From an uncultured bacterium (GTDB lineage: Bacteria > Cyanobacteriota > Cyanobacteriia > Thermostichales > Thermostichaceae), in NCBI GenBank assembly GCA_964434865.1, contig CAYSWV010000011.1, positions 14,611-78,610 on the forward strand: a DNA stretch of 64,000 bases, read 5' to 3'. The position numbers and the translations under genes were made by a program. The notes beneath the pieces were generated by a model that had not been told where the DNA came from, made no database searches, and saw nothing but the letters and a program-made list of their open reading frames with translations. Below are positions 8,325 to 58,030 of this stretch, one piece after another (the first letter of the stretch is position 1; each line of letters begins with the position of its first letter).

Positions 8325-8503
8325 CTGTATAATTAAATACAAGTCTTGCGGAAACCTTACTAGATCAGCCCTAGTCTTAGGACAAACGATGCACTATGTC
8401 TTATAGAATAAGGCTTCTAAGTCTAGTCAAGAGTCCGAGGCGTTTAAAGTCTTTAACTGAGCTAGTAGTTTCTAATTCGTTCTGTTTTCCTAGGAGTATC
8501 AAC

Positions 8504-9547
8504 ATGAGTATGACCCGTCGCCAGATAATAATCGCTACCTTATCTTCAATTCTACTCGGCTTGGGTGGAATCTGGGCTGGACACAAGCTACTCTCTAAAC
8601 ACCAGGTAGTGGCCCAAGCTCAAGAGCCTTTATCTGGAACGATGACACTTTATACCTCTGATCCAGATAGTATTATTAACCAAGTAATCAATGATTTTAA
8701 TGAAGTCCATCCTGAAATCAAGGTTAATATTTTTCGTTCAGGTGGAACTGAAGTCGTTTCAAAACTCCAGGCTGAAGCCCAGGCGGGTCAAATTCAAGCT
8801 GATGCCATCATGGTGGCGGATGGGGCTTACATTCAAGAAATGATCGAGAACGATGCGTTGCTGTCTTATCGACCCGAAAACGCAGATAAGGTGCCCGATA
8901 TTTACCACTACGGCGATGATCAGGCTCATGAGGTCCGTCTAACGTTTGTGGTGATTGCTTACAACACGTTACAAGTCCAAACGCCACCTCAAGGATATGC
9001 TAATTTGCTGGATCCCCAGTACCGGGGCCGAATTGCTTCGACTAATCCTTTATTTAACGGTACTGCCTTTTCGCAAATGGGAACTTTTGTTAGTAAGGAT
9101 GAGTTTGGGTGGGATTTCTTTGAGAACCTAGAAGCTAATGATGTGAAATTTGAGCAAGGTAACACCGGCTTAGCGGCTAAGGTTGCTAATGGGGATTATG
9201 CACTAGCTAGTACGGTTGATATTGTTGTTCGATCACTGATCCGGGAAGGATCACCGATTCGGTATGTGTGGCCCCAAGAAGGAACACTGCAGATTCAAAC
9301 GCCTTTTGCCATTTTGAAGGATAGTCCGAATGTAGAGCTTGCTAAAACCTTATTGGATTATCTGTATTCTGATCGAGCTCAGAATCTCTACCTAGATTTG
9401 GGATTTGTATCGCCCCGTGAGGATCTGCCAAAGCCTGATGATGAGGCCTTGGGTGAGATCAATGTCATTCAGGTTGACAATGACTATATTAAATTGAATC
9501 GAGAAGCCTTACGAGAGGGGTTTACACAACGCTTTGGTGGGGCTTAA
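8504..9547 (+). CDS. ABC importer substrate-binding protein (Fe3+/family-1 type)
   Basis: Start chosen at MSMTRRQIIIATL (twin-arginine-like signal). It is the first gene of an SBP-permease-ATPase operon. Confidence 0.7.
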   Translation: MSMTRRQIIIATLSSILLGLGGIWAGHKLLSKHQVVAQAQEPLSGTMTLYTSDPDSIINQVINDFNEVHPEIKVNIFRSGGTEVVSKLQAEAQAGQIQADAIMVADGAYIQEMIENDALLSYRPENADKVPDIYHYGDDQAHEVRLTFVVIAYNTLQVQTPPQGYANLLDPQYRGRIASTNPLFNGTAFSQMGTFVSKDEFGWDFFENLEANDVKFEQGNTGLAAKVANGDYALASTVDIVVRSLIREGSPIRYVWPQEGTLQIQTPFAILKDSPNVELAKTLLDYLYSDRAQNLYLDLGFVSPREDLPKPDDEALGEINVIQVDNDYIKLNREALREGFTQRFGGA

Positions 9548-9604
9548 TCTGAGCACCATCTCCTGAAATTGATCTTAATCTCTTAAAAAGAACAAGGATT
9601 TGTA

Positions 9605-11329
9605 GTGTCAAATGTAACTCGACCCCCAGCTGCGATGAAACTATCCACTGGAGTGCTCTACAGCGGAGTTGGCCTGACTGTTGTTCTGGTTTTAGGATTG
9701 ATTATCTATCCGTCCTTACTTCTGGTAGGGCAAAGTTTTTGGGCAGATCAGATCACGTTAGCCAATTATCAAGAGATCTTGAGTCAAACTCAAACTTATC
9801 AAGTGCTGGGAAATAGTCTAGTGGTGTCTGGTACTTCGACAGTGATAGCGACCTTTTTAGGCACTTTATTAGCTTGGTTAGTGGCTCGGACCGATCTGCC
9901 TTGGCAACGGTTTTGGCGGGCAGCCTTGCTAGTACCTTATATGATCCCACCTTTTATTGGGGCGATTGCATGGACCTATTTACTGGGTCGGGCTGGCTAC
10001 TTAAATAAAATTTGGATGGCCGTGACACAATCGTCTGATCCATTGGTGATTTTGTCTGGCCCCATTGGGATTATCTTTGTCATGACCTTGTTTAGCTTCC
10101 CTATCGCCTATCTGGTCACCCTAGGTCCTTTAGAACAAATGGATCCGGTATTAGAAGAAGCAGCACGAATGTCTGGTGCGAATCCGTTACAAACGCTGAA
10201 AGATATTGTAGCCCCTTTAATCTTGCCGAGTATGGGGTCGGCAGCGCTGTTAATCTTCTTACTTCTGATGGCCAATTTTGGGATCCCTTCAGTGATTGGG
10301 CTACCCGATCGATACTACGTGATGACAACCCAGATCTATTCCTTAATTTTAAATTATTCAAAAGCTTACAACCTGCAACTTGCAGCGGCTTTAGCAATGG
10401 TGCTGGTTCTGATTGCAATCTTAGGATTACAGACCCAACACTGGATTTTAAGATCAGATCGATACCAAATTGTCACCGGGCGTAGTACCCAATCCCAGCC
10501 ATTGGCCCTAAAAGGTTGGAAACCTGTGGTGCTAGTGGGGCTAGGAGTGCTACTAGGATTCACCGTAATAGCCCCCTTGATCGCGATCTTATTGAATTCG
10601 TTGTTACGGGCCTTAGGCTTACCGCTAGCTTGGGAGAATTTAACGTTGAAGCACTACCATGCTGTGCTGTGGGGTGTCCCTAAAGTGCGCCGTGCAATCA
10701 TAAACAGTCTCCTTCTAGCCACAGGCTCAGCTAGCGGAATCGCTGCTCTATCTATGTTGATCAGTTATCTAGTAGTACGTCTCAAGATCAGAGGTAGCCG
10801 CTGGTTAGAGGCTATGGTCACCATTCCCTATGCCATTCCGGGTACTGTGGTGGCCCTAGCTTTGATCCTGGCCTTTCTCAACCCAATTCCAGGACTTAGG
10901 ATCACCCTGTACAACACCATTTGGATCTTATTCATTGCTTATCTAGGCCGATTTTTGACCTTTGGTCTGCGGTCTATCAGTGCTGGGCTAGCTCAAATCG
11001 ATCCTGAACTTGAACAGGCGGCTCGGGTTTGTGGAGCGGCGCCAACTCGCGTGATTTGGGATGTCACACTGCCTCTGATCCGAAGTAGTGCCTTTGCAGG
11101 TTGGTTTTTAGCTTTTGTACCTTGCTTGGCAGAGCTAACGGTCTCTATCCTGCTAGCTTCAGTAGGGACTGAAACCCTAGGCACAACGGTCTTTGGTTTA
11201 TATGAAGAAGGGAAAGTTGGTATGACAGCGGCCCTGTCGTTACTGGTAACAGGTTTAATCTTCGGGATCTATGGCTTGGCACGTTGGGCCACTCGAGGGC
11301 AAGCGAGTGTCTGGAGTGGGGGGGGCTAA
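9605..11329 (+). CDS. ABC importer permease, fused two-domain (FbpB/ThiP-like)
   Basis: 574 aa with about 12 TM segments arranged as two tandem MalFG-type halves. GTG start; an alternative ATG lies at 9635. Confidence 0.8.
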   Translation: MSNVTRPPAAMKLSTGVLYSGVGLTVVLVLGLIIYPSLLLVGQSFWADQITLANYQEILSQTQTYQVLGNSLVVSGTSTVIATFLGTLLAWLVARTDLPWQRFWRAALLVPYMIPPFIGAIAWTYLLGRAGYLNKIWMAVTQSSDPLVILSGPIGIIFVMTLFSFPIAYLVTLGPLEQMDPVLEEAARMSGANPLQTLKDIVAPLILPSMGSAALLIFLLLMANFGIPSVIGLPDRYYVMTTQIYSLILNYSKAYNLQLAAALAMVLVLIAILGLQTQHWILRSDRYQIVTGRSTQSQPLALKGWKPVVLVGLGVLLGFTVIAPLIAILLNSLLRALGLPLAWENLTLKHYHAVLWGVPKVRRAIINSLLLATGSASGIAALSMLISYLVVRLKIRGSRWLEAMVTIPYAIPGTVVALALILAFLNPIPGLRITLYNTIWILFIAYLGRFLTFGLRSISAGLAQIDPELEQAARVCGAAPTRVIWDVTLPLIRSSAFAGWFLAFVPCLAELTVSILLASVGTETLGTTVFGLYEEGKVGMTAALSLLVTGLIFGIYGLARWATRGQASVWSGGG

Positions 11330-11331
11330 TT

Positions 11332-12411
11332 ATGGGACAACTGGAGCTCGCCCACCTCCAAAAACGGTATGGATCAACCTTGGCGGTGGCGGATGTCAGC
11401 TTGACGATTGCCCCTGGAGAGTGGGTCACCTTTTTAGGGCCTTCAGGGAGTGGTAAAACGACAACCCTCCGGATGATTGCTGGGTTTATTCAGCCGACAG
11501 TGGGTTCGATTCAATTAGATGGTGAGATTTTGACCTCAGTAGCTGATCGCATCTTTATTCCTCCAGAGCGGCGGCACATGGGTATGGTTTTTCAATCCTA
11601 TGCTGTCTGGCCCCACATGACTATCTTTAAAAATGTGGCTTACCCCTTGAAGTTCACGGGGCTGGATCCAGCAGAACAGCAAACACGAGTAGGTAAAATT
11701 TTAGACTTGGTACAACTATCCCATCTATCAAATCGCTTTCCAGCCCAACTATCCGGAGGCCAGCAGCAACGGGTTGCTTTAGCTCGATCTCTGGTAATGG
11801 AACCTAAATTGTTACTCTTGGACGAACCCTTAAGTAATTTAGATGCCAAATTACGGGACGAATTACGTGCTGAAATTGTTGATCTAACCCGCTGTTTAGG
11901 CGCCACAGTCATATATGTTACCCATGATCAAACCGAGGCCCTAGCAATGTCAGATCGAGTGGTCGTCATGCATCACGGACAGATTCAGCAAGTAGACACG
12001 CCTCAAGTTATTTATCAGACGCCTGTGAATTCCTTTGTTGCTACCTTTGTTGGATCAGCTAATCTACTACCTGGTCGAGTCCTCGATTTTCGAGGGGAGT
12101 GGATGGTGGTCGAAATAGTTCTCAACTCTCCTGTAGTCCTGAAAGTGCTGAATTTACAGGGGGCCCACCTAGCGATTGATCAACAAGTTACTGTGATGAT
12201 CCGACCTGAGAACATCCAGCTCAAACGGCGAGGAGACTCTGAGATCACAGCTACTATTTTGCAACGATCCTATCTGGGGCATCGAGTAATTTATCAAGCC
12301 CAAGTGGGATCTGAGAAGCTACAAGTGAGTACATCAGTCAATCAGTTTCAAGTGGGAGACTCTGTTAGCCTAGGGGTTCAAGATCCAGTGATAGTGCCTG
12401 ATGCATCTTAG
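11332..12411 (+). CDS. ABC importer ATP-binding protein (FbpC/PotA-like with C-terminal TOBE-like domain)
   Basis: Walker A GPSGSGKTT, signature LSGGQQQRVALAR, Walker B LLLLDEPLS, H-loop VTHDQ. ATG at 11332 sits 2 nt after the permease stop. Confidence 0.9.
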   Translation: MGQLELAHLQKRYGSTLAVADVSLTIAPGEWVTFLGPSGSGKTTTLRMIAGFIQPTVGSIQLDGEILTSVADRIFIPPERRHMGMVFQSYAVWPHMTIFKNVAYPLKFTGLDPAEQQTRVGKILDLVQLSHLSNRFPAQLSGGQQQRVALARSLVMEPKLLLLDEPLSNLDAKLRDELRAEIVDLTRCLGATVIYVTHDQTEALAMSDRVVVMHHGQIQQVDTPQVIYQTPVNSFVATFVGSANLLPGRVLDFRGEWMVVEIVLNSPVVLKVLNLQGAHLAIDQQVTVMIRPENIQLKRRGDSEITATILQRSYLGHRVIYQAQVGSEKLQVSTSVNQFQVGDSVSLGVQDPVIVPDAS

Positions 12412-12517: not shown

Positions 12518-12973
12518 TTACTCACCCCAATCTGCAGGGGCTAAATTCTCACTGTAGGCGATCCCATAGAAATTGCCGCTTTGGCCATAGATAGACCAGT
12601 CTGCGGCTTGATCACCTTGGCTGTATCGAGTGAATTTGGCTCGAAGGGGAATGATGCGTGTCACTTCAGCTGTCATTGAGCCATAGTCACCCAAAAATTC
12701 CTGAGGATCGGGTACAGATTGTTCACGGCTTTGAATCTCAATCTGAAAGACTTGATTTTGGTCATTGGCAATCGCACGCACGAGGCGTGATCCCTGATCC
12801 TCATCCATAGCGCTGTGACCTTTGACCTGTCTTAGACTAACGCCAGATACGTTGTTGGGTAAGGGATCTCCCAAAGCAATAGCATAGGCCGATCCAGCGC
12901 TTACCAACAGTAAAACAGTGACAACTAAGCCAACGACAACATAGCGGCTATAGGTCAAAATGCGTTGCATCAT
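12518..12973 (-). CDS. Secreted hypothetical protein
   Basis: 151 aa. N-terminal signal-like segment VVVGLVVTVLLLVSAGSAYA. Confidence 0.5.
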   Translation of the reverse strand: MMQRILTYSRYVVVGLVVTVLLLVSAGSAYAIALGDPLPNNVSGVSLRQVKGHSAMDEDQGSRLVRAIANDQNQVFQIEIQSREQSVPDPQEFLGDYGSMTAEVTRIIPLRAKFTRYSQGDQAADWSIYGQSGNFYGIAYSENLAPADWGE

Positions 12974-13038
12974 TGAATCTCCGTGATCTCCTACAAAGTG
13001 AATGAAAAACTGCGAAAGCCTAAGGTCAACCCAGGCTC

Positions 13039-14157
13039 TTAAGTCGCGGGTCTAAACCCAACCTGACCTTGGTTGATATCAAATAGAGTATCGGCCCGGA
13101 AAAAGAAGGGCATACCGATAAGCTGCACTCCAAACTGAGAATTGACAAAGATCCGATCTAACCCCGGAGTGGGGGGGGTTTGCACATTGATGGTGAAGTT
13201 AAAAATCCCAGGTACCGTGGCAATAAACTGAGATCCGCCAGGCAAGATAGATCCAAACTGGAGGAAGGGCGCCCCCAGGGCTGAGGTATTGATTGAAATA
13301 TCTGAGGACCCTGTATCGTAGGCAGCCAAGTCAGGCACATTTTGAATAGTAGTATTTGAAATCGTGAAATTGGTTAGGATCTCATCGTCCCAGATCGGTA
13401 CTCCATTGGCAAACGTGGGCAGAGAAGGGGGTTGACCAAGTTGTCGGATTGCAAATCCAGCCCGGTTATTAGAGGTTAGGCCAGCCGTAAATACACCTTG
13501 TGTTGAGTTAAACCCACCTGTTTGAATAATGTAGCCACTGCTAAAATTGCCAGCCAGCTGAGCGATGGGGCTGAAGATCAGCGGTTCTGAGGTGCGATTG
13601 GCCAAAGAGACCCCCACAATTCCAGAAAAGAAGCCCGTCCCATCAAATAATTCATCAGGACAGTTGCCGTCATTACAGCGAACCTGGTCAATGATTTGAA
13701 TATTGATCGCACCACTGCTAGAGGCTGCTCCAATCGAGACTGGGGCTTGACCAATTACTCCGTCAAAGGTGGTGCCATCAGCAAAGGACACAGTAGAGGG
13801 AATATCCGTTCTGATCAATCCAGCTGACCCAATCGCAGAGGCTAACACTCGAATTCCAGCTGATCCGGTATCCAGCAACAACTCGGTGGTTTGCCCCGCG
13901 ACATTAATCGGTAGACCCAGTAGTTTTAAATTAGTACTGCCCAGAAGTACCGTCCGCACAGGCATCCCTACAGCGGTAACACCAGGTTCAAGGGTAGGAA
14001 TCGGAATCGGAGGTAGGGGCGTTGTGACGCTGTTCGATCCACCCCCACAGGCTGTAATTCCCAAGCAATAGACAATCATTAGGATCCAGCTGATCCGCCG
14101 TAAGGATTGCCAAATCGTCTGGACAGATTGCATAACCGATGTCTCCTTGATAGTCAT
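13039..14157 (-). CDS. Pepsin-like (A1-type, two-DTG) aspartic protease homologue, predicted lipoprotein
   Basis: Lipobox GITAC. LLLDTGSAG and YDTGSSD lie ~185 aa apart, matching pepsin D32/D215 spacing. C-terminal FFFRADTLFDINQGQVGF resembles the A1 C-terminal motif (..vFD..nn.vGFA). Confidence 0.6.
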   Translation of the reverse strand: MTIKETSVMQSVQTIWQSLRRISWILMIVYCLGITACGGGSNSVTTPLPPIPIPTLEPGVTAVGMPVRTVLLGSTNLKLLGLPINVAGQTTELLLDTGSAGIRVLASAIGSAGLIRTDIPSTVSFADGTTFDGVIGQAPVSIGAASSSGAINIQIIDQVRCNDGNCPDELFDGTGFFSGIVGVSLANRTSEPLIFSPIAQLAGNFSSGYIIQTGGFNSTQGVFTAGLTSNNRAGFAIRQLGQPPSLPTFANGVPIWDDEILTNFTISNTTIQNVPDLAAYDTGSSDISINTSALGAPFLQFGSILPGGSQFIATVPGIFNFTINVQTPPTPGLDRIFVNSQFGVQLIGMPFFFRADTLFDINQGQVGFRPAT

Positions 14158-14259
14158 GAATAAAGCGTACGAACCTAGTGAGTTGAGGTCAATTGACTAA
14201 AGCCATTAACCCAGTTGCGGCCAAGATCGGCCTGAGATGGGGCTTAAAAACAGGCTAGA

Positions 14260-15345
14260 TTAGCTCGTTCGGCCCCGAAATCCAATTTGTCCCTGATTGA
14301 TGTCAAACAAGGTGTCGGCCTCAAAGAAAAAGGGCATACCGATGAGTTGAAAATCTAAGCTTGAATTGACAAATATCCGATCCTGGCCTGGAGTAGGCTG
14401 AGGGGATCCCACCACAATACGGTAATCAAACCCGCCAGGTAAAAAGGCCCTGAACTCGGAGCCAGAAGGTAATTGAGACACTGTGAGCGGGGTGCTACCC
14501 AAACGAGTTACATTCAAAGCAATATCTGAGGATCCAGTATCAAAAGCAGTGAAATCAGGGGCATTCTGGATAGGCGTGTTTTCGATGGTGTAGTTAATCA
14601 CAGGTGAATCATCATCCCAGATGGGCTTCCCATTGGTAAAAGTAGCTGGGATCCGCTCCAACTGGAGGGTAGCAAAAGTAGATCGATTTTGTGGAGTTAG
14701 ACCTACTGTAAACAAGCCTTGAGCCGAGGAAAACCCCCCTGTTTGAATGATATAGCCACTGCTGAAATTACCCATTAGCTGAGCGACCGGACTAAAAATC
14801 ACTGGCTCTCCGCTCCGATCAGCTAGTGAGGTGCCGATGATACCAGAAAAGACTCCTGATCCATCAAAGATAGCCTCAGAACAGGTCCGACCGGGTCGAC
14901 ATCCTACCCGTTCAATGACCTGAATATTAATCGCACCCGCACTGGTTGCTAGTCCTAACGAAACCGGGGCTTGACCAATTACACCTTCAAAAACGGTATC
15001 ATCGGCAAACTCGACCCTAGAGGGTTGTTGAGTTTTGACTAGACCCACTGTTCCTGCAGCTGATTCCAGAATGCGCACCCCAGCTGATCCAGTATCCAAT
15101 AATAGTTCAGCGGTTTGGCCTGCTACCGTTGTAGGCAAGCTGAGTAATTTAAAGCTATTGATTTGACGCACGGGCATGGGAATGGTGAGGCTCCCAGCTT
15201 CAAGGGGCGGTGGGGTTAAGGCTGTAGGCGCACTTTCAGAATTACTTAAGCCACAAGCTATCAGGCCCACACAGCTGATCACCATCAGAAGCCAACGCCA
15301 ATATCGATGCCTTACACCTAACCTACTACTCATAGTTCTCCCCAC
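14260..15345 (-). CDS. Pepsin-like aspartic protease homologue, predicted lipoprotein (paralogue of 13039..14157)
   Basis: Lipobox GLIAC. LLLDTGSAG, FDTGSSD and FFFEADTLFDINQGQIGF. It is collinear with its neighbour over the whole length. Confidence 0.6.
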   Translation of the reverse strand: MGRTMSSRLGVRHRYWRWLLMVISCVGLIACGLSNSESAPTALTPPPLEAGSLTIPMPVRQINSFKLLSLPTTVAGQTAELLLDTGSAGVRILESAAGTVGLVKTQQPSRVEFADDTVFEGVIGQAPVSLGLATSAGAINIQVIERVGCRPGRTCSEAIFDGSGVFSGIIGTSLADRSGEPVIFSPVAQLMGNFSSGYIIQTGGFSSAQGLFTVGLTPQNRSTFATLQLERIPATFTNGKPIWDDDSPVINYTIENTPIQNAPDFTAFDTGSSDIALNVTRLGSTPLTVSQLPSGSEFRAFLPGGFDYRIVVGSPQPTPGQDRIFVNSSLDFQLIGMPFFFEADTLFDINQGQIGFRGRTS

Positions 15346-15446: not shown

Positions 15447-16433
15447 TTACCGACTCGTTTTTTTTCGGATGGGTTTGATCCAACCTTGATCATTAGAGTG
15501 CTCTTTGATAGGAGCAGCAGGCTTGGTAGTCGAATCTCGCGAGACTAGCTGGGGTCGTTCTGTTGTACCAGGTTTAGTCGGACGTGTGGGTTTCTTACGG
15601 CGCTGAGGTTTTTGAACATTGGCAATAGCAGTAGCTGCTTCAATGGTGAGATCAGCCCCTTTACGTTGAACATCCATTTCCCAAAAATAGCCAACTCCTT
15701 TACTAGGCAGCGTTCCTGTTAATCGCAATTTAAAGGATTGTTCTTTGCCTCTAGCATTTTTCTTAGTGGTCTGACGGATTTTGACAATGATGACATTCTT
15801 ATCCTGTGATTGAAAAATAACTTCACCTCGGATTGAAAAATAATCCGGTATAAGGGGATCGGCTGTTTCAGGCAAGGGAGGTTTTCCCATTTCTTCAGGA
15901 GCCCATACTCCCATAATCTGGACGTGCAATGTTTTACTACCTTGACGAGTCCGAGGGTAAACCACCCACAGATAGGATTGCTCAGTATTCAAGTACTTCC
16001 GTACCAGGTTCATGACTCGGCCTAGAAGGACAGCATCCAGCTCTGTGCCATCCTCTGTTTTTAGAATGCCACGCGTAAACTGCTCATCTGAAGGCTGGTA
16101 TTGACCTCGAACTAGACCAATAGCTCGATACTGAAGCTGCTCACTAGGTGGTGGAATGGGATGGTTAAACGTGCTGTCTGTGTCCTCAGCAGGAGGGTCG
16201 TTAGGTTTGGGATCACTCAGTTTCGGTTTGATCGGGGGAGGTGAAAGACGGGTTGGTGGACGTAAAACAGGTGATGACTCTTGAGTTTCTTCAAGGTTTG
16301 GCCTGGGAGCAGGCTTGGGGGGCAGTCCTTTTTTACCAGCCTCTCGATCTTGACTAGCATCTCGATCAGCCCGTCCTGATGAGGGAGGGGTAGGTGGCGT
16401 GGGACGAATAGGGCGCTTCGGCTCAAGTGGCAT
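15447..16433 (-). CDS. Hypothetical protein with a proline-rich N-terminal third
   Basis: 328-aa ORF. The N-terminal ~100 aa are P/K/S-rich and the remainder looks globular. No motif recognised. Confidence 0.45.
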   Translation of the reverse strand: MPLEPKRPIRPTPPTPPSSGRADRDASQDREAGKKGLPPKPAPRPNLEETQESSPVLRPPTRLSPPPIKPKLSDPKPNDPPAEDTDSTFNHPIPPPSEQLQYRAIGLVRGQYQPSDEQFTRGILKTEDGTELDAVLLGRVMNLVRKYLNTEQSYLWVVYPRTRQGSKTLHVQIMGVWAPEEMGKPPLPETADPLIPDYFSIRGEVIFQSQDKNVIIVKIRQTTKKNARGKEQSFKLRLTGTLPSKGVGYFWEMDVQRKGADLTIEAATAIANVQKPQRRKKPTRPTKPGTTERPQLVSRDSTTKPAAPIKEHSNDQGWIKPIRKKTSR

Positions 16434-19205: not shown

Positions 19206-20201
19206 ATGAGTGATACCTATTCAGAGTCTGAAGCTAAAGTTTGGTCGATGAAATCAATGTTGCCTTTGCCGTTACAAGGCTCAGAGCCGATGGAAGTTCT
19301 TATTGGAATTTATCTCTATGATTTTTTTAAAGTAGATGATAGTCAGCAAACATTTGAGGCTGATTTTTACCTTTCATTCCGGTGGGTGGATCCAAACCTG
19401 GCACAAGTTACTGAGAATACTGATGATCTCATCAAGCTGCAGTCGCGTAAGGTCAATCTAGATGAGATCTGGCACCCAATGATATTTATTTTGAACCGAC
19501 GACAGAACTTAATTCAAACATTTGAATCAGTCGTTGTAGCAACTGACGGTACCGTTGTTGTAGGTAAACGATTTCAAGGATCGTTATCTTCAGTAATGGA
19601 CTTAAAAAGATTTCCGTTCGATCAACAGGTTTTCCCCATTCAGGTTTCATCTTACGTTTATGGACCTGATGAGATTTCATTAGTTGTCGATGAGCAAGTA
19701 ACAGGTAGAACAGAAAGTCTATCAATCCCCAACCAAAAAATTGAGTCGTTCTCGTCTGTTATTAGCTCTCGTCGAACATCTCACCCCTGGAAAAATTATG
19801 TGAACTTCACCTACCAGATTCCAGCAAAACGCCATCCAACCTATTATTTAGGGAAAGTTATTTTGCCGCTAATGCTGATTAATTTGATGGCCTACTTGGT
19901 TTACTGGTTAAACGTTGAACAAACGATGCCTCAGGTGGCTATTTCAGTTGCAACAGTGCTCAGCTTGATCACGTATTGGTTCACGCTACAACAAGAGTTA
20001 CCACGTATCCCCTATCTAACGGCTCTAGATACCTTCATGATTGGATCAATGCTACTTGTATTTGCAGCTCCAATTGAAACCGTCATAACTGTTAATTTTG
20101 CTGAAGTCAAGTTGAATCTCCTTGCTTTTGAACTTGATCAATGGATGAGGTGGTTAATGCCAATGTTATATCTGGGACTGACTATCGTCGCTTTTTGTTA
20201 G
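19206..20201 (+). CDS. Prokaryotic pentameric ligand-gated ion channel (GLIC/ELIC-like, Cys-loop superfamily)
   Basis: ECD motifs FEADFYLSFRWVDPNL and IWHPMIFILN. Cys-less 'Cys-loop' LKRFPFDQQVFPIQVSSY. Four TM helices follow (M1 YYLGKVILPLMLINLMAYLVYWL, M2, M3, short M3-M4 loop, M4). Confidence 0.75.
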   Translation: MSDTYSESEAKVWSMKSMLPLPLQGSEPMEVLIGIYLYDFFKVDDSQQTFEADFYLSFRWVDPNLAQVTENTDDLIKLQSRKVNLDEIWHPMIFILNRRQNLIQTFESVVVATDGTVVVGKRFQGSLSSVMDLKRFPFDQQVFPIQVSSYVYGPDEISLVVDEQVTGRTESLSIPNQKIESFSSVISSRRTSHPWKNYVNFTYQIPAKRHPTYYLGKVILPLMLINLMAYLVYWLNVEQTMPQVAISVATVLSLITYWFTLQQELPRIPYLTALDTFMIGSMLLVFAAPIETVITVNFAEVKLNLLAFELDQWMRWLMPMLYLGLTIVAFC

Positions 20202-47834: not shown

Positions 47835-47907
47835 TGGAGCTTAGCGGATTCGAACCGCTGACCCCTTCAATGCCATTGAAGTGCTCTACCAACTGAGCTA
47901 AAACCCC
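47835..47907 (-). tRNA. tRNA-Ala (anticodon GGC)
   Basis: The reverse complement GGGGTTTTAGCTCAGTTGGTAGAGCACTTCAATGGCATTGAAGGGGTCAGCGGTTCGAATCCGCTAAGCTCCA folds as a cloverleaf. Anticodon loop is AT-GGC-AT. The G3:U70 alanine identity pair, the GTTCGAATC T-loop and discriminator A are all present. CCA is not encoded. Confidence 0.9.
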
Positions 47908-57964: not shown

Positions 57965-58030
57965 GGTGAGGAGTGAAGAGAAAAAGCTCTGGAGTCGAAA
58001 CACGGCAAGACGCCTGGGGCTTTTTCTTTC
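57965..58030 (+). ncRNA. Yfr2-family-like sRNA candidate, copy 1
   Basis: 5' GGUGAGGAGUGAA, then a bulged hairpin GCUCUGGAGUC-GAAACACGGCAA-GACGCCUGGGGC, followed by UUUUUCUUUC. Confidence 0.45.

Follow-up and report, generated by a model that had tools for sequence, protein, structure and literature searches.

Two-lobed pepsin-type proteases have long been regarded as essentially eukaryotic, and we know of only two bacterial groups that have been studied experimentally, the cytoplasmic shewasins and mycobacterial PecA. Here we analyze a 64,000-nucleotide (nt) stretch of DNA (the window) from an uncultured cyanobacterium of the Thermostichaceae (contig CAYSWV010000011.1), in which two adjacent open reading frames (ORFs) on the minus strand, ORF A and ORF B, encode paralogous proteins with the motifs of pepsin. 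Both proteins are probably extracytoplasmic, lipid-anchored, two-lobed aspartic endopeptidases that work with a dedicated substrate or regulator, as judged from residue conservation, remote homology and a structure prediction. The locus is a member of a third, much larger and uncharacterised bacterial group (~1,640 clusters) that includes lipoproteins, autotransporter passengers and glycosidase fusions.

The closest described proteins are the C-terminal domains of Mycobacterium tuberculosis PE_PGRS16 (Rv0977; structure 4EHC) and PecA (PE_PGRS35), which belong to PF20729. Like the window proteins they are bacterial, single-chain and two-lobed and carry a DTG and a D(T/S)G motif. They are found at an extracytoplasmic surface, as is predicted for the window proteins, and 4EHC provides both the best target-normalised structural match and the best profile match for the window proteins. 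PecA is a demonstrated protease that cleaves PE_PGRS proteins as dedicated substrates and requires its DTG aspartate (PMC6819658). In contrast to this group, the window proteins score below the PF20729 cut-off and lack the PE and PGRS regions and the type VII context. They are instead cyanobacterial, carry predicted Sec/lipoprotein export signals and a family-specific cysteine pair, and have DTGS in both lobes.

Shewasins A and D are likewise bacterial and two-lobed, have no pro-segment and show the DTG and psi-loop signature. Their pepstatin-sensitive activity has been demonstrated (PMC4814920), and shewasin A cleaves a neighbouring borosin precursor encoded in the same gene cluster (bioRxiv 10.1101/2024.01.09.574750). 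Shewasins match PF00026, lack a signal peptide, are cytoplasmic and have Ala at position 218 of the second motif, whereas the window proteins fail PF00026, appear to be exported lipoproteins, have Ser at position 218 and lie outside any cluster for ribosomally made, post-translationally modified peptides (RiPPs). DUF3443 proteins are also bacterial members of the aspartic-peptidase clan, uncharacterised and without a function to transfer. Eukaryotic pepsins (penicillopepsin, candidapepsins, plasmepsins and renin) share the predicted fold, the catalytic motifs, the psi-loop glycines, the flap hairpin and the C-terminal strand, but are 13-18% identical to the window proteins, which have no pro-peptide, 29 rather than 43 residues from Asp to flap, Phe rather than Tyr at the flap, another disulfide pattern and a lipid anchor signal.

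Tandem paralogues with a predicted pepsin fold

ORF A and ORF B (Table 1) lie where an earlier note on this DNA had placed them and are paralogous as it had proposed, with 59% identity across 356 amino acids (aa; E=1e-138). The ATG favored as the start of ORF A is preceded by AAGGAG and agrees with the 364-aa database gene call P0001. We built an AlphaFold2 (AF2) model of ORF A from a 29-sequence alignment. The model is mostly beta, with a predicted local distance difference test score (pLDDT) of 86.7 and a predicted template modelling score (pTM) of 0.81. A Foldseek search of this model against the Protein Data Bank (PDB) returns 564 matches at E<=1e-3. The top matches are all A1 pepsins aligned over ~355 columns and include penicillopepsin (3app, E=5.7e-16), endothiapepsin, plasmepsins and renin, with template modelling (TM) scores of 0.58-0.68; the highest target-normalised TM score, 0.73, belongs to 4EHC, the C-terminal domain of PE_PGRS16. 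This alignment bears out the bilobal aspartic-protease fold on which the earlier note had staked its proposal, and a single polypeptide with two beta-rich lobes and an A1-like fold is supported by the model.

Profile comparisons lead to the same fold. A sequence search of the PDB with a single protein gives no match at E<=10, and family profiles are needed to reach known structures. A profile of 113 sequences matches 4EHC across both lobes (E=1.9e-18) and candidapepsin-3 over its full length (E=6.2e-9). With candidapepsin-3, the N-lobe motif (DTGS/DTGS), the psi-loop (GilGvG/GILGIG), the C-lobe motif (DTGa/DSGT) and the C-terminal strand are all in register. With a narrower profile, penicillopepsin is matched in the N-lobe and flap (E=2.5e-4). 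Similarity between the profiles of the N-lobe and C-lobe is confined to the surroundings of the DTG motif (E=1.6e-4), in line with what has been found for pepsin (PMC2761423). From the in-register, full-length alignments to pepsins, D96 and D281 of ORF A would be juxtaposed at the base of the cleft.

The tandem arrangement is specific to this lineage. No second protease copy lies within 6 kb in any of the 80 related loci compared, so the tandem pair occurs only in this genome among them, and a neighbor-joining tree places ORF A and ORF B as sisters with P0003 as the nearest outgroup. Together with the identity between the two copies (~59-61%), this indicates a tandem duplication that is lineage-specific but not recent. 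All family-invariant residues are kept in both copies.

Conserved catalytic residues

Each protein carries two DTGS motifs, which the earlier note had put ~185 residues apart; the spacing is exactly 185 residues in both ORF A (D96 and D281) and ORF B (D84 and D269). Hydrophobic residues precede the motifs, in L-L-D96 and L-L-D84 of the N-lobe and Y-D281 and F-D269 of the C-lobe. We also confirm the C-terminal motifs MPFFFRADTLFDINQGQVGF and MPFFFEADTLFDINQGQIGF, and both proteins end in MPFFF(R/E)ADTLFDINQGQ(V/I)GF. The earlier note had likened this ending (FFF.ADTLFDINQGQ.GF) to a conserved A1 motif, and it does align with the C-termini of candidapepsin, penicillopepsin and plasmepsin V.

Residues C37, D96, G98, S99, C161, C166, D281 and G283 of ORF A are invariant in the alignment of 29 homologues. 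When the comparison is widened to 113 homologues, down to ~20% identity, the only columns that remain invariant are D96, G98, G182, D281 and G283, with T97, S99 and G348 at least 90% conserved. Two or more D[TS]G motifs, typically 180-195 residues apart, occur in 137 of the 147 listed family representatives. The Asp-x-Gly motifs and two psi-loop glycines are the residues that define pepsin-type enzymes (PMC2761423; PMC4814920). That these should be the sole invariant columns across 113 divergent homologues argues for a conserved catalytic function, and the catalytic activity of ORF A and ORF B is inferred on this basis.

By analogy with pepsin, both proteases would be single-chain clan AA enzymes that act as monomers, with one Asp contributed by each lobe. 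In ORF A, D96 and D281 would each be held by a psi-loop and would together activate a water molecule for attack on the peptide bond of a substrate bound in the cleft, under a beta-hairpin flap whose tip carries Phe instead of Tyr. Neither protein has a pro-segment, and control of the protease would therefore probably come from elsewhere.

Family placement and distribution

DUF3443 (PF11925) is the only Pfam model above its cut-off, with ORF A at 27.0 bits and ORF B at 28.2 against a threshold of 25, and PF11925 is also the precomputed annotation of database proteins P0001 and P0002. The match is limited to profile positions 34-148 of 367 (protein residues ~71-186, in the N-lobe), so that the window clade is at best a divergent DUF3443 subfamily in sequence terms. 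PE-PGRS_C (PF20729) stays below its cut-off of 33, at 22.4 and 17.2 bits, and neither protein matches a PE domain or a PGRS linker, their N-termini being of Sec type with a lipobox. Single-lobe, retropepsin-like models (Asp_protease_2, PF13650; TIGR02281) give sub-threshold matches to the N-lobe, and TIGR02281 accounts for all of the NCBIfam matches. In place of the ~100-120 aa dimerising lobe of a retropepsin, the window proteins have two lobes, each with a DTG motif. Among 113 relatives at E<=0.01, PE-PGRS_C is matched by 99, DUF3443 by 89 and PF00026 by 6. Given these Pfam and NCBIfam results and the counts across relatives, ORF A and ORF B are, as far as sequence comparison goes, remote A1 homologues within the aspartic-peptidase clan, closest to DUF3443 and PE-PGRS_C, and not demonstrable A1 members.

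An exhaustive profile search of 1.84 billion cluster representatives (clusters at 50% identity) places 1,644 clusters in the family at E<=1e-3, of which 260 reach E<=1e-30. In species-representative genomes we found 163 encoding loci and retained 80 of them for comparison. Strict A1 proteins are rare in bacteria, having been found in 7 of about 960 genomes in 2009. The rarity of two-lobed pepsin homologues in bacteria, as the earlier note had it, therefore holds for strict A1 but does not extend to the wider superfamily. Nearly all public names in the family read "hypothetical protein", with one "aspartyl protease family protein", and no relevant paper came up in our literature searches for DUF3443, PF11925, PF20729, IPR021847 and cyanobacterial lipoproteins of the pepsin type.

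The close clade (40-55% identity) consists of Thermostichus, thermophilic "Synechococcus" and other cyanobacterial metagenome-assembled genomes (MAGs), and a large Nostocales clade follows at ~30% identity. The closest relative found outside the cyanobacteria comes from a deltaproteobacterial MAG (L019:6001-6921); it is 34% identical to ORF A, has the lipobox LALAA-C and stands without the partner gene described below. The Nostocales homologues (L020-L080, e.g. L020:6001-6939; P0078) are ~740-790 aa long, with the pepsin-like domain at the C terminus and, fused ahead of it at the N terminus, a GHL10 glycosyl-hydrolase-like domain (PF02638, E=2.8e-100). Neither a lipobox nor a consistently conserved neighbor was detected in this clade. 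In P0157 (1015 aa) and P0166 (978 aa), an N-terminal pepsin-like domain is followed by an autotransporter beta-domain (PF03797), an architecture that would make them passengers of type V secretion with the two-lobed fold of an aspartic protease. In P0100 (814 aa), a single chain holds two pepsin-like units, with D[TS]G at 216, 394, 542 and 718, in effect a tandem duplication joined into one polypeptide.

Predicted lipoprotein N-terminus and location

A charged n-region opens both proteins and is followed by a hydrophobic stretch and then the lipobox (GITA-C37 in ORF A and GLIA-C31 in ORF B). A rule in the style of PROSITE PS51257 is passed in full by ORF B, while ORF A meets the core pattern only. 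The lipobox cysteine is invariant in all 29 homologues, and 16 of the 18 close loci share the lipobox core; of the 147 listed family representatives, between a quarter and a half show a lipobox-like motif close to the N-terminus. These data uphold the lipobox cysteines that the earlier note had read in the two proteins (ITAC37 and LIAC31).

We infer that a Sec-type signal peptide would export each protease and that the lipobox cysteine would then be lipidated. A flexible linker of ~20 residues would tether the protease to a membrane's outer face, on the periplasmic side of the plasma membrane or in the thylakoid lumen. Cys161 and Cys166 of ORF A probably form a disulfide, which would fit an oxidising extracytoplasmic location. 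A position at the envelope or cell surface fits this cysteine pair, the absence of a pro-segment, and the relatives that are autotransporter passengers or GHL10 fusions.

A co-inherited partner gene

A gene for a 151-aa secreted protein follows ORF A, and only ORF A, directly. In 15 of the 18 closest loci this partner lies immediately downstream of the protease on the same strand, with gaps of 13-193 nt (median 68). It is the only neighbor conserved across the close loci, where the other flanking genes vary, and in Thermostichus sp. MS-CIW-23 the protease and partner carry consecutive locus tags. The partner has an A-x-A cleavage site, a conserved mature N-terminus (I/V-x-L-G-D-P-L-P) and a ~120-aa beta-rich domain, which AF2 models as eight strands and one helix (pLDDT 86.8). 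It matches no Pfam or PHROG family, and its own family comprises 22 database clusters, all from the same lineage. Its structural matches to PsbP, LpqN, DcrB, Tsi3, BLIP-like proteins and lipocalins are weak and scattered.

The protease and partner have also been duplicated together. In two MAGs with two dispersed protease copies, a partner of its own lies beside each copy. For protease and partner alike, the nearest neighbor of the second-copy module L014 is the second-copy module L015, and vice versa. Distance matrices of the two proteins correlate with r=0.93. Based on this co-duplication, clustering and correlation, the protease-partner pair is, by sequence comparison, a two-gene module that has been duplicated and inherited as a unit.

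By analogy with known systems, the partner is most likely a dedicated substrate or a cognate regulator or inhibitor of the protease. A dedicated substrate is a reasonable guess because shewasin A and PecA both act on genetically linked substrates, and a cognate inhibitor or regulator is equally reasonable because the protease has no pro-segment. The narrower proposal, that the partner is a regulator acting either as an inhibitor or as a pro-segment in trans, with its mature N-terminus (I/V-x-L-G-D-P-L-P) in the cleft, is speculative and on balance unlikely to be correct in this form. Were it true, the locus would encode a proteolytic module that can be switched, possibly by pH, in the periplasm or thylakoid lumen of the cyanobacterium. 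To our knowledge, and as far as our literature searches reach, no bacterial protein has yet been described as an inhibitor or partner of a two-lobed aspartic protease, and the present one would be the first.

Two RNA-level candidates around ORF A were rejected. A terminator-like hairpin of 10 bp with a T-rich tract at 13015..13039 (-), which overlaps the ORF A stop and lies shortly before the partner gene, is no more stable than shuffled sequences (z=-0.65), and the spacer between ORF B and ORF A does no better than shuffles as an RNA element (z=-0.72).

Alternative explanations

Several observations weigh against reading the locus as a protease with a dedicated partner. PF00026, TAXi_N and TAXi_C give no match at E<=10 to either protein, and DUF3443 is passed marginally and in the N-lobe only, so that of the families suggested for a HMMER search in the earlier note just the last is recovered. 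The Foldseek TM scores are moderate (0.58-0.73), with root-mean-square deviations of 4.6-6 Å. Both proteins have Phe where the flap Tyr75 would be expected (Phe125 of ORF A; in ORF B, the Phe of 'VEFADD'), as placed in ORF A by alignment of 'vsFadGt' with penicillopepsin 'ISYGDGS', and the wider family consensus here is Tyr. Of the A1 features, both DTG motifs and both psi-loop glycines are present and the flap tyrosine is not. ORF A fails the position and charge sub-rule of the lipoprotein pattern. For PE_PGRS16, whose structure is the closest one solved, no proteolytic activity was detected (PMC6819658). L004, L016, L017, the Nostocales clade and the distant members all lack the partner, and a search of the PDB with the partner's predicted fold gives no significant match (best E=0.015, TM <=0.33).

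Some of these points would suit proteins that have kept the pepsin fold without being enzymes, as lipid-anchored binding or inhibitor-like proteins comparable to the plant TAXI-type xylanase inhibitors and perhaps to PE_PGRS16 itself. The lack of demonstrated activity for 4EHC, the flap Phe and the missing pro-segment, whose absence would be hazardous in a protease without regulation, all lean this way. However, both Asp residues, both Gly residues of the motifs and the psi-loop Gly are invariant in 113 sequences down to ~20% identity, PecA of the same PE-PGRS_C group is active and depends on its DTG aspartate, and a flap Phe is also seen in further bacterial pepsin homologues, among them the A1 homologues of Marinomonas and Sinorhizobium. 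Given this pattern of invariance we consider a non-enzymatic role rather improbable. The proteins could also be true A1 (PF00026) pepsins acquired from a eukaryote, since they show the A1 catalytic signature in full, their best structural matches are fungal and protozoan pepsins, and horizontal transfer has been proposed for some bacterial A1 homologues (PMC2761423). Such an origin is very hard to reconcile with the missing PF00026 match and the small share of relatives that match PF00026 rather than PE-PGRS_C or DUF3443. It also sits poorly with the breadth of the family in bacteria, which has 1,644 clusters and members across cyanobacterial orders and in a deltaproteobacterial MAG, with the bacterial lipoprotein signal at the N-terminus, and with a GC content of 0.48 in the protease region that equals that of its flanks. 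On the Pfam results and this bacterial breadth, transfer from a eukaryote has next to no likelihood.

A further alternative concerns the partner alone, which may be functionally unrelated to the protease and adjacent to it through synteny inherited in one cyanobacterial lineage. Its confinement to close relatives (22 clusters), its absence from 3 of the 18 close loci, from all Nostocales and from distant homologues, and the presence of two proteases but one partner in the window are all expected on this account. Simple synteny does not readily explain why the partner is the sole conserved neighbor while other flanking genes differ, or why it always lies on the same strand 13-193 nt downstream. 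Above all, in two MAGs a separate partner accompanies each dispersed protease copy, and the second copies group together for both genes. In light of this co-duplication, we regard a chance association as unlikely. We favor a two-lobed, lipid-anchored aspartic protease with a dedicated partner.

From the invariance of the catalytic residues across the family, its proteins are predicted to be active. The cyanobacterial clade offers a compact system of one protease and a single co-inherited secreted partner, either substrate or regulator. Knowledge of its activity, of its compartment (the periplasm or the acidic thylakoid lumen) and of the role of the partner would fill a gap in our understanding of proteolysis in the cyanobacterial envelope and lumen. 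The family may also bear on the evolution of the pepsin fold before eukaryotes.

Table 1 Positions of the protease genes, their motifs and the partner gene in the window
Feature	Position	Strand	Remarks
ORF A, pepsin-like lipoprotein paralogue	13039..14157	-	372 aa; likely start ATG 14136 (M8)
ORF A signal peptide and lipobox (…IVYCLGITA-C37)	14047..14136	-	Cys invariant; AF2 helix 6-32, disordered linker 35-47
ORF A N-lobe catalytic motif D96-T-G-S99	13861..13872	-	pepsin Asp32 equivalent; invariant column, pepsin alignment
ORF A predicted flap beta-hairpin, residues 115-138	13744..13815	-	strands 115-124 and 129-138; Phe125 at pepsin Tyr75 position
ORF A Cys161…Cys166 pair, family-specific	13660..13677	-	invariant in 29 homologues
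ORF A N-lobe psi-loop I-V-G182	13612..13620	-	invariant in 113 sequences; aligns with candidapepsin GILG
ORF A C-lobe catalytic motif D281-T-G-S284	13306..13317	-	pepsin Asp215 equivalent; invariant column, candidapepsin alignment
ORF A C-lobe psi-loop L-I-G348 and C-terminal strand motif MPFFFRADTLFDINQGQVGF	13054..13122	-	aligns with candidapepsin, penicillopepsin and plasmepsin V C-termini
ORF B, pepsin-like lipoprotein paralogue	14260..15345	-	361 aa from GTG; likely start ATG 15333
ORF B signal peptide and lipobox (…MVISCVGLIA-C31)	15253..15333	-	PS51257-style rule passed; Cys family-invariant
ORF B N-lobe catalytic motif D84-T-G-S	15085..15096	-	invariant column
ORF B C-lobe catalytic motif D269-T-G-S	14530..14541	-	invariant column
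Partner gene, 151-aa secreted orphan	12518..12973	-	65 nt after ORF A
Partner signal peptide, residues 1-31	12881..12973	-	predicted cleavage between AYA and IALGD

Other features of the window

Directly upstream of ORF B lies a 328-aa ORF (15447..16433, -) with a Pro-rich N-terminal half and no match in Pfam, NCBIfam or PHROG. Only in L005 and L013 does an ORF in the equivalent upstream position resemble it, with 58-66% identity over the C-terminal half, and because it is conserved upstream in these two loci alone it was rejected as a member of the protease-partner module. On the other side, a three-gene ABC transporter (8396..12411, +) converges on the partner gene. It resembles a putative 2-aminoethylphosphonate system (PhnS2/PhnU2/PhnT2-like), with all matches below the equivalog cut-offs. 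Its permease and ATPase ORFs, as listed, share an overlap of 46 nt, and the ATPase therefore probably begins downstream of the TTG assigned as its start.

Further along the window, a 331-aa ORF (19206..20201, +) matches the ligand-gated ion channel family (TIGR00860, E=2.6e-47; NF033918, E=1e-34) and is, by these profile matches, a homologue of the prokaryotic pentameric ligand-gated channels. A tRNA gene is located at 47835..47907 (-), and a Cyano-1 RNA motif (RF01701) at 57967..58029 (+) scores 45.1 bits against a gathering score of 41, in keeping with the cyanobacterial source of the window.

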